Of a DNA stretch of 391 nucleotides, positions 1 to 391 are shown piece after piece. A program made the position numbers and the translations under genes. Position 1 is the first letter of the stretch. Every line of letters starts with the position of its first letter. Source of the stretch: Escherichia coli (GTDB taxonomy: Bacteria; Pseudomonadota; Gammaproteobacteria; Enterobacterales; Enterobacteriaceae); NCBI RefSeq assembly GCF_003334255.1, contig NZ_QOWU01000249.1. One strand, given 5' to 3'. The notes under the pieces were generated by a model. That model was not told the origin of the DNA. It saw nothing but the letters and a program-made list of their open reading frames with translations, and ran no database searches.

Positions 1-54
1 CAGGAGGTGCCGTCGGAAGATGCCAGGGCTGATAATCCGTTACAGAGGCTGTAA
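1..54 (+). CDS. possible 3' end of an upstream CDS entering from the left (frame 1, ...QEVPSEDARADNPLQRL*)
   Basis: Frame 1 is open from position 1 to TAA at 52-54, and the translated tail has ordinary mixed charged/polar composition. Only 17 codons are visible, so this cannot be confirmed; frame 2 is also open to TGA at 80-82. Confidence 0.15.
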   Translation, partial: QEVPSEDARADNPLQRL

Positions 55-57
55 TGG
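37..57 (+). promoter_or_regulatory. hairpin (9-bp stem incl. one G-U, loop AGG) enclosing the candidate SD and start codon of ORF 54-290
   Basis: CCGTTACAG (37-45) pairs with CTGTAATGG (49-57): C37-G57, C38-G56, G39-T55 wobble, T40-A54, T41-A53, A42-T52, C43-G51, A44-T50, G45-C49. SD AGAGG 44-48 and ATG 54-56 lie inside it. Any regulatory role is inferred. Confidence 0.35.
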
Positions 58-290
58 TTGCCTCCGGAGCAGTTTGCAGTGATGCCTTTCCCGGGAATGG
101 ATTGCCAGTGCGGGGACTGTGGAGCTTAATTCCGGTGTTGGTGGCCTTTCCGTTGATTTTATGCCAACAGCCCCCTGTGACTGACAGGCTGCCTCGTCAT
201 TCCATTCGTATCTCCAGTAACAGGGGGTTGTATTGTATTTTATTGTGCCGGTTCAGATGTGCGTTTCCCGGCGCGTCTGCACCGGCTTAA
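54..290 (+). CDS. hypothetical small protein (78 aa), doubtful; possibly a small hydrophobic peptide, or a spurious ORF over noncoding structured DNA
   Basis: ATG 54-56 to TAA 288-290. For: AGAGG at 44-48 with 5-nt spacer acts as a plausible SD; the ATG overlaps the TAA (52-54) of upstream frame 1 as TAATG; residues 22-37 (LWSLIPVLVAFPLILC) are hydrophobic. Against: 5 of 7 Arg codons are AGG/AGA/CGG; product is Cys/Pro/Arg/Leu-rich with no recognisable motif; the ORF spans hairpins, a palindrome and direct repeats. Confidence 0.25.
   Translation: MVASGAVCSDAFPGNGLPVRGLWSLIPVLVAFPLILCQQPPVTDRLPRHSIRISSNRGLYCILLCRFRCAFPGASAPA
78..96. repeat. copy 1 of imperfect direct repeat (CAGTGATGCCTTTCCCGGG), core GCCTTTCCCGG at 84-94
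   Basis: Matches 254-272 at 14 of 19 positions by manual alignment; the core matches 261-271 at 10 of 11. A shorter third copy lies at 143-152. Confidence 0.5.
88..97. repeat. 10-bp perfect palindrome TTCCCGGGAA; candidate dimeric protein-binding site, function unknown
   Basis: Reverse complement of 88-97 is identical to itself. It sits inside copy 1 of the direct repeat. At roughly 1 in 1024 per position, chance occurrence in 391 bp is not negligible. Confidence 0.4.
143..152. repeat. copy 2 (short) of direct repeat core: GGCCTTTCCG
   Basis: GCCTTTCC at 144-151 is identical to 84-91; spacing from copy 1 is 60 bp. Confidence 0.4.
167..231 (+). other. nested stem-loop: 12-bp outer stem (167-178 / 220-231, CCCCC/GGGGG core) enclosing an inner hairpin (182-188 / 192-199, loop CTG, one bulged C195); candidate structured RNA element
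   Basis: ACAGCCCCCTGT (167-178) pairs with ACAGGGGGTTGT (220-231). As DNA the match is 11 of 12; as + strand RNA the mismatch becomes a G170-U228 wobble, whereas the minus strand would have a C-A mismatch, so the structure is slightly more stable if the + strand is transcribed. Confidence 0.45.
226..247. repeat. T-rich tandem pentamer array GGTTG-TATTG-TATTT-TATTG-TG immediately 3' of the nested stem-loop
   Basis: TATTG 231-235, TATTT 236-240, TATTG 241-245, preceded by GGTTG 226-230. This is the most AT-rich stretch of the window. Confidence 0.45.
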
Positions 291-337
291 CCAAATTCAA
301 CAGGGATAAAATAGTGGTAAGCGTACAGCCTGAACCG
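249..337. repeat. 8-bp perfect inverted repeat CGGTTCAG (249-256) / CTGAACCG (330-337) bracketing 73 bp
   Basis: Exact reverse complements. The pairing does not extend (C248/T338 and A257/C329 mismatch). Could be a long-range RNA pairing or chance. Confidence 0.3.
254..272. repeat. copy 3 of imperfect direct repeat (CAGATGTGCGTTTCCCGGC), core GCGTTTCCCGG at 261-271
   Basis: See copy 1. Start-to-start spacing between copy 1 and copy 3 is 176 bp. Confidence 0.5.
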
Positions 338-354: not shown

Positions 355-391
355 GAATTAGACAAAGTGGTGTCCACCAAATAAGTAGTGG

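Follow-up and report, generated by a model that had tools for sequence, protein, structure and literature searches.

The window analysed here, a stretch of 391 bases of Escherichia coli DNA, is 100% identical to the chromosome of strain ATCC 11775 (NZ_CP033092.2, 4156003-4156393), and nearly the whole of it is found in 1933 RefSeq records. The gene map given by RefSeq is the same in the three annotated strains ATCC 11775, DA33133 and 042. The features of the window, in its own coordinates, are as follows.

1-54, + strand: 3′ end of the gene for a zinc-ribbon-domain protein (WP_001221615.1, 144 aa), with its TAA stop codon at 52-54 (RefSeq annotation)
55-316: intergenic gap of 262 bases, in which the RefSeq annotation is empty in the strains compared
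54-290, + strand: 78-codon ORF (ATG at 54, TAA at 288-290), judged to be a chance frame and no gene
58-129, + strand: frame-1 mini-ORF MPPEQFAVMPFPGMDCQCGDCGA, placed by MAFFT opposite the Cys-rich mini-gene downstream of alpA in the sister island type
83-94 and 260-271: direct repeat TGC(C/G)TTTCCCGG
84-91 and 144-151: direct repeat GCCTTTCC
85-100: palindrome
167-183 and 215-231: inverted repeat, complementary at 15 of 17 positions
167-231, + strand: long imperfect hairpin formed by these two arms around a 31-nt loop, with the T-rich pentamers of 228-246 after it
212-226, + strand: T1 hairpin, CUCCAG-UAA-CAGGGG, with one internal A-A mismatch, then UUGUAUUGUAUUUU
228-246: TTGTA-like pentamers, 3.8 copies (Tandem Repeats Finder)
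247-286, + strand: H2 hairpin of 16 pairs and an 8-nt loop, in the 5′ leader of a UCP030791 gene
302-306 and 314-316, + strand: Shine-Dalgarno sequence AGGGA and GTG start of the UCP030791 / PF27752 gene, of which the start codon alone survives
317-391, + strand: left end of an IS66-family element, opening with GTAAGCG; tnpA begins at 388 or just past the window

The ORF at 54-290 is the longest in the window, at 78 aa (the runner-up has 42 aa), and falls within the 262-base gap between the zinc-ribbon gene and the IS66-family element. The initial annotation had left two readings of it standing, an unusual small membrane peptide or noncoding DNA; the noncoding side was borne out by the comparisons described below and the peptide side was not. 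It had also stated that, if the ORF were not real, the window would be essentially noncoding, which proved too sweeping, because a real gene ends within bases 1-54 and bases 317-391 belong to an IS66-family element.

All of the sequence features that had suggested a coding function were found. An AGAGG motif at 44-48 lies 5 nt ahead of the ATG, a correct spacing for a Shine-Dalgarno sequence; the ATG overlaps the zinc-ribbon stop codon as TAATG; and residues 22-37 of the product (LWSLIPVLVAFPLILC) are hydrophobic, the highest 19-residue Kyte-Doolittle mean, over residues 19-37, being 1.99. These features count in favour of a rival explanation, that the ORF encodes a real, young and lineage-specific small membrane protein, coupled to the upstream gene through TAATG in strains with five C in a C-run within the frame (ATCC 11775, 042 and S88 among them), the broken alleles being losses of function; we consider this very improbable. 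The ORF does possess a start codon, a ribosome-binding site and a hydrophobic helix, but neither the ribosome-binding site nor the hydrophobic helix is decisive, because the Shine-Dalgarno sequence sits within the final codons of the upstream gene (CAG AGG CTG TAA). It and the TAATG overlap are by-products of those codons and hence are kept for that reason. The composition noted earlier as unfavourable to coding was likewise confirmed, with five of the seven Arg codons rare (two CGG, two AGG and one AGA, the remaining two being CGT) and 5 Cys and 9 Pro in the product; the complete lack of Lys and Glu and the rare Arg codons also speak against a membrane protein. Nor does the length of the frame help that explanation, as among 2000 dinucleotide-preserving shuffles an ORF of at least 78 aa arose in 25% when any start codon was allowed and in 12% when ATG was required. 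The length is at chance level and unremarkable.

Homologous loci were gathered from complete E. coli genomes and, by means of a conserved 23-base pattern, from metagenome contigs, and gave 60 window-type loci, representing 21 distinct sequences; because the sampled genomes are clonally related, the counts of loci are counts of non-independent events. Conservation of the frame had been named beforehand as the point on which a coding reading would stand or fall, and frameshifts were found: the ORF is intact in 40 of the 60 loci (10 distinct sequences) and broken in the other 20 (11 distinct sequences). The C-run at 170-174 consists of 4, 5 or 6 C, or reads CCCTCC, and breaks the frame; the T-rich stretch at 223-236 has suffered a 12-nt deletion, further deletions and the gain of one extra G; and one homologous locus has lost 104 nt. 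Among complete genomes, the 43 bases around the C-run are matched exactly in 1715 of 1990 carrier records (~86%) and differ in 275 (~14%); among the matches listed in this 43-base test, four of five differing carrier rows have a 1-base insertion. No feature was annotated under the 43-base match in the RefSeq rows listed, apart from one row in which a neighbouring zinc-ribbon gene overlaps it. A frame intact in two-thirds of the loci (40/60), and in ~86% of carrier genomes at the C-run, agrees with a functional membrane protein in those strains; however, more than half of the distinct sequences (11/21) are frame-broken, and at several independent places.

Variable sites in the ORF fall on codon positions 1, 2 and 3 in the ratio 8/5/8 (n = 21; binomial p = 0.40 for a third-position excess), and the substitutions comprise 14 nonsynonymous and 7 synonymous changes. 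The zinc-ribbon gene upstream, used as a control in the same loci (39 intact), gave 8/9/21 (binomial p = 0.004), and the test therefore has power in this sample. Third-position bias, the second check that had been proposed, is thus absent from the ORF and present in its neighbour, which supports the noncoding reading and weighs against the membrane protein.

Searches for relatives gave the same picture. We found no homologue of the ORF product beyond its own locus among 5.8 billion proteins; the 54 matches were all E. coli or Shigella calls at this locus, from 43 to 107 aa in length and with C-termini in differing frames, and truncated 43-aa forms occur on 162 and 125 contigs. Comparison of the product with NCBIfam and PHROGs returned zero family matches. 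The exact 78-aa product is deposited in GenBank and UniProt as a ‘hypothetical protein’ on >1000 contigs and has been annotated as such by several submitters, which counts in favour of a genuine small protein, yet the ORF was not called in any RefSeq annotation that we looked at, and both the lack of homologues elsewhere and the differing frames in which the called products end are at odds with one. With its frame broken, its codon bias absent and neither an outside homologue nor a family match, the unusual small membrane peptide is not upheld: the 78-codon ORF is a chance product, not a gene. It would be open by accident, as one frame of a GC-balanced, T-rich and stop-poor stretch that happens to be unbroken in the commonest allele.

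The ORF resembles other spurious ‘hypothetical proteins’ from enterobacterial intergenic regions in its open frame, whose start and Shine-Dalgarno sequence are acceptable, in being called by some pipelines and absent from the RefSeq PGAP annotations examined, and in its single locus, unconserved frame and odd composition. It differs from them only in spanning an entire structured leader. Against the verdict of a chance ORF, the majority allele keeps the ORF intact and encodes a hydrophobic stretch behind a start codon and Shine-Dalgarno sequence that are usable, and its translation in those strains is possible.

The nature of the DNA beneath the ORF is indicated by a sister island type, in which an AlpA/excisionase-like helix-turn-helix gene, matching excisionase/regulator PHROGs (locus L005), lies directly upstream of this leader. 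Bases 194-316 of the window share 76-79% identity with the spacer that separates the AlpA-like gene from the UCP030791 gene in three loci (L005, L011 and L012); in local alignments the homology reaches weakly to about position 133, where only 133-159 attains p = 0.006. Loci that are free of the IS continue from the GTG as GTG CAA ATA ACC GAA..., which in L005 and L011 is the start of an annotated gene of 166-182 aa. The identification of UCP030791 with PF27752 was assigned from precomputed hits, a direct Pfam search of the protein giving no match. All 45 distinct leaders contain a conserved box (...TCTGCACCGGCTTAAC-AAATTC..., also given as CCGGCTTAAC-AAATTC) that is followed either by the UCP030791 GTG CAAATAACC start or by an IS. 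The window carries the features that mark a UCP030791 leader, namely a position upstream of the GTG CAAATAACC start, the H2 hairpin and the CCGGCTTAAC-AAATTC box, and of the start itself it retains GTG alone. No repeat copy of the leader was found before the first Gp2-family gene of the island, BLASTP detected no similarity between the Gp2-family protein and the UCP030791 protein, and a search for the leader pattern across species-representative genomes found one metagenome-assembled genome only.

Set beside the demonstrated gene map, homology, frame breaks, absent codon bias, fold energies and pair counts, bases 55-316 are in our judgement very probably an untranslated spacer of an E. coli genomic island, running from the zinc-ribbon gene to the GTG of a UCP030791-family gene, with the 78-codon ORF open in it by chance. 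Of 28 AlpA-type loci, 26 have an intact UCP030791 gene; of 60 window-type loci, none does. Among the latter, 42 have IS66 straight after the GTG, 15 read GTG TAA, and three retain a 22-codon stub at the junction of island and backbone. In the window, the IS66-family element landed right after the GTG and destroyed the UCP030791-family gene. The downstream gene is always dead in the island type of the window, and the leader is therefore under relaxed constraint and decaying, in keeping with the deletions and homopolymer slippage observed in it. The T-rich tract, palindromes and stem-loops of the spacer are explained by its being a conserved leader that belongs to a neighbouring gene and is cut by an IS exactly after the start codon.

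The junction with loci that are free of the IS places the left end of the element at 316/317, where it starts with GTAAGCG, and phage and plasmid matches to the window start at the same point. Like ISEc8 and its relatives in the IS66 family, the element has the terminal GTAAGCG followed by tnpA, tnpB and tnpC, which are annotated downstream of the left end in ATCC 11775, DA33133 and 042; both the terminal repeat and the tnpABC set of an IS66 element were therefore recognized at 317-391 and beyond. The copy in ATCC 11775 differs from the type in two respects: its tnpC is frameshifted, and the 8-bp target duplication is absent at its right end, the flanks being AAATAGTG before the left end and TTTTGTTC after the right end (L001, ~8614). 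The missing duplication points to a later deletion or recombination after the insertion. Plasmid matches that begin at 292 were discarded as an alternative boundary of the IS, as they comprise the element itself plus a resemblance at chance level or due to target preference.

It might be supposed that the whole of 55-316 is part of a mobile element (a terminal region of an IS, a MITE or a group II intron fragment), given that IS66, IS100 and IS2 flank or cut the region in different strains and that 181-236 recurs, with 91% identity, beside a group II intron maturase remnant at another locus. We give this next to no credence. The copy of 181-236 lies outside the intron ORF and on the opposite strand, so that a link with the group II intron is ruled out by position and strand; the IS66 boundary at 316/317 is clean when compared with IS-free loci; neither terminal inverted repeats nor target duplications were found around 55-316; and the position and orientation of the spacer before the UCP030791 start are fixed in every locus.

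The palindrome, direct repeats, stem-loops and T-rich pentamer array that had been described beneath the ORF are all present where they were placed. By our own estimate, direct repeats of 8-12 nt occur roughly in the number expected by chance for 391 bases. The stem-loops exceed chance. RNA of the + strand of 55-316 folds with -97.9 kcal/mol (z = -2.74), a value equalled by 0 of 200 shuffles, and the - strand with -74.7 (z = -0.81). The fold of 160-250, which includes the long hairpin, has -29.1 kcal/mol on the + strand (z = -2.9, against -1.1 for the - strand), and that of 228-316 has z = -3.85.

The long hairpin at 167-231 is confined to the island type of the window, and the C-run of 4, 5 or 6 bases that breaks the ORF sits in its 5′ arm. 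The 3′ half of the smaller T1 hairpin doubles as its 3′ arm. T1 itself has a homologue in the sister island type, CGCCAG-UCA-CUGGUG; across 12 distinct sequences 94.4% of its cells are paired, one pair appearing as GU, AU, UG and GC, and its covariation score was matched by 7 of 500 shuffles. A search with a terminator-like consensus picked out one site in the window, 210-228, with 6 pairs (three G-C) and a 7-nt loop, against 0.5 expected from shuffles, and a cleaner site than that of the window at the homologous place in L005. The region resembles Rho-independent terminators and attenuators in having a sense-strand stem-loop and U-rich tract between a stop codon and the next ribosome-binding site, with the consensus site at homologous places in two island types. 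Unlike such terminators, the copy in the window contains an internal mismatch, or a 31-nt loop in its long version, and its U-tract is interrupted.

These structures raise the alternative that the spacer is not a relic but still a working RNA, with 167-247 as the terminator of the zinc-ribbon operon or as a small RNA derived from its 3′ end, which on balance we regard as unlikely. The strand-specific fold of 160-250, beyond both its shuffles and the - strand, and the terminator-like hit would fit such a role, as would an apt position some 115-190 nt past a stop codon on the same strand. However, a 31-nt loop and an interrupted U-tract make a poor intrinsic terminator, the C-run and G-run in the arms vary in length without matching changes between them, and the 12-nt and 104-nt deletions take parts of the structure away in some loci. 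An Rfam match is also absent: a permissive search of the window with Rfam 15 gave as its best hit a eukaryotic lncRNA model (score 19.7 bits, threshold 45, E = 0.19), and the leaders of L001, L005 and L074 gave no match at gathering thresholds.

On the preferred reading, of a decaying leader behind the zinc-ribbon gene, the long hairpin is possibly the transcript-end structure of the zinc-ribbon operon and, with T1 in its 3′ arm and the U-rich tract, would probably terminate or attenuate transcription arriving from upstream. Next, in the leader of the downstream gene, comes the stable 16-pair hairpin at 247-286, and after it an A-rich linker, the Shine-Dalgarno sequence and finally the GTG. 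A scan of the window for sigma-70 promoters was negative, which makes transcription of the leader from upstream the most likely case; the hairpins would then probably shape or attenuate the transcripts that read through. In L005 a single sigma-70 hit was obtained; it lies across the start codon and was set aside as probably due to chance.

Across 23 distinct leaders, 91.8% of the cells of H2 are paired, although the sequence pattern with which the loci were collected had itself fixed most of its 3′ arm, and for the same reason a shuffle control is uninformative for this hairpin. Nine pairs vary one-sidedly in these leaders, through GU, GC and AU changes, and zero changes are compensatory. The helix exists only in RNA of the + strand, because a quarter of the cells are G-U. 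A strong hairpin, both arms of which have been shortened together, is also present in the distant locus L134, where the UCP030791 protein has 52% identity. H2 is weak in a leader type with AT-rich upstream sequence (L135, z = +0.84), in which the gene is sometimes intact.

The AlpA-like gene before the leader, together with the terminator-like hairpin, gives the sister island type a layout reminiscent of AlpA-dependent antitermination in Pseudomonas aeruginosa, where a regulator gene, a terminator-like hairpin and a target gene follow one another (PMC7969949, PMC9371919). Three elements define an AlpA-type unit: the gene for AlpA itself, a promoter containing its binding element, and a bypassed intrinsic terminator. 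The likeness to that system is one of layout, the E. coli protein being known by its excisionase/regulator PHROG matches alone and, in contrast to the P. aeruginosa arrangement, the island type of the window is without alpA upstream.

In the sister island type, the Cys-rich mini-ORF of 30-43 codons located after alpA has variable sites distributed 3/6/17 over the codon positions (binomial p = 0.0008 for a third-position excess); this unannotated mini-gene is probably real. The frame-1 mini-ORF at 58-129, aligned opposite it, could at best be a decayed relative of the mini-gene: it has 8 variable sites and, by our own tally, no codon bias in its own frame. Homology of 55-132 to the sister mini-gene is not claimed, the z values being 1.5-3.8 and those of two of the three comparisons 1.5-1.7. 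We would go further only as speculation, and think it quite doubtful, that the UCP030791 spacer, of which 194-316 would be a decayed copy, is an undescribed cis-regulatory RNA leader in which the AlpA-like regulator and the Cys-rich mini-protein control read-through. If that were true, the leader would consist of a terminator-like hairpin and a second hairpin, with flanks able to pair with the ribosome-binding region.

For annotation, the value of these results is that the 78-aa ‘hypothetical protein’ now present on >1000 contigs should not be counted as a gene, and the locus clearly illustrates how a real upstream gene can produce, as by-products, a favourable Shine-Dalgarno sequence and overlapping stop and start codons. 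Separately, two side observations, the structured leader conserved ahead of UCP030791 genes and the probably real Cys-rich mini-gene after alpA, might help in studying the expression of a poorly understood module of E. coli genomic islands.

The leader, the short spacer that precedes the UCP030791 (PF27752) gene, is a hot spot for insertion, and the elements found within it in different strains (L027, L009 and L012) are as follows.

Insertions in the leader (window positions)
About 209: right end of an IS66-family element
About 236: IS100
316/317: IS66
Sister island type: IS2

In the window, the IS66-family element begins directly after the GTG with which the UCP030791 gene starts (window 314-317). 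The right end of this element, at about position 8614 of the ATCC 11775 locus (L001), lacks the expected 8-bp target duplication, and the remainder of the UCP030791 gene was therefore lost by deletion or by an IS-mediated rearrangement. The annotated start of tnpA (window 388-391) differs between RefSeq records: DA33133 has it at the GTG of window 388, ATCC 11775 and 042 another 21 bases downstream. On plasmids of E. fergusonii and E. coli, the sequence to the left of IS66 copies resembles the corresponding flank in the window, with about 16 of 25 bases in common (L136 1476-1500 against window 292-316), a likeness that could stem from a preference of this IS for certain target sites.

Downstream of the leader in three other loci (L004, L007 and L074) lies a stub of the UCP030791 gene of 22-24 codons (VQITEVLLAESGEASGVLFNRL). 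The stub marks the junction between island and backbone, with a DeoR regulator, rbsK and a fucP-like gene as neighbours, and several differing island contents are found to its left.

In the long hairpin, one arm holds a C-run (window 170-174) and the other a G-run (window 223-227), each of 4, 5 or 6 bases. Their lengths vary independently of one another, a pattern that suggests simple slippage and not compensatory change. The leader segment at window 181-236 recurs with 91% identity at L006 4001-4056, where it adjoins a group II intron maturase remnant within the grp (glycyl-radical propanediol) locus; in this copy the short terminator-like hairpin has a fully complementary stem (CGCCAG-UAA-CUGGCG, then UUUGUAUUGU).

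In the sister island type, which carries an AlpA-like gene upstream of the leader, a Cys-rich ORF of 30-43 codons, starting MKRVVMPVRWQCAKCRRWYCGNQPCPWCWR, is found at L005 3839-3931, and also in L011, L019 and L134 (383-511). It overlaps the stop codon of the AlpA-like gene through ATGA. We consider it probably a real mini-gene, because its 26 variable sites are distributed 3/6/17 over the three codon positions (p = 0.0008) and a distant locus retains the arrangement of Cys residues. Its annotation is very rare, with one partial GenBank entry found. Where a deletion variant keeps the leader open in frame, as happens in some strains, gene prediction joins the mini-ORF to the entire leader and the UCP030791 gene, giving a single 250-residue product (P0058, 226 member sequences).

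The zinc-ribbon gene that ends at window 54 is frameshifted, stopped or truncated in seven of 46 loci (L016, L030, L041, L044, L052, L076 and L082), and it follows that the entire island arm is decaying.
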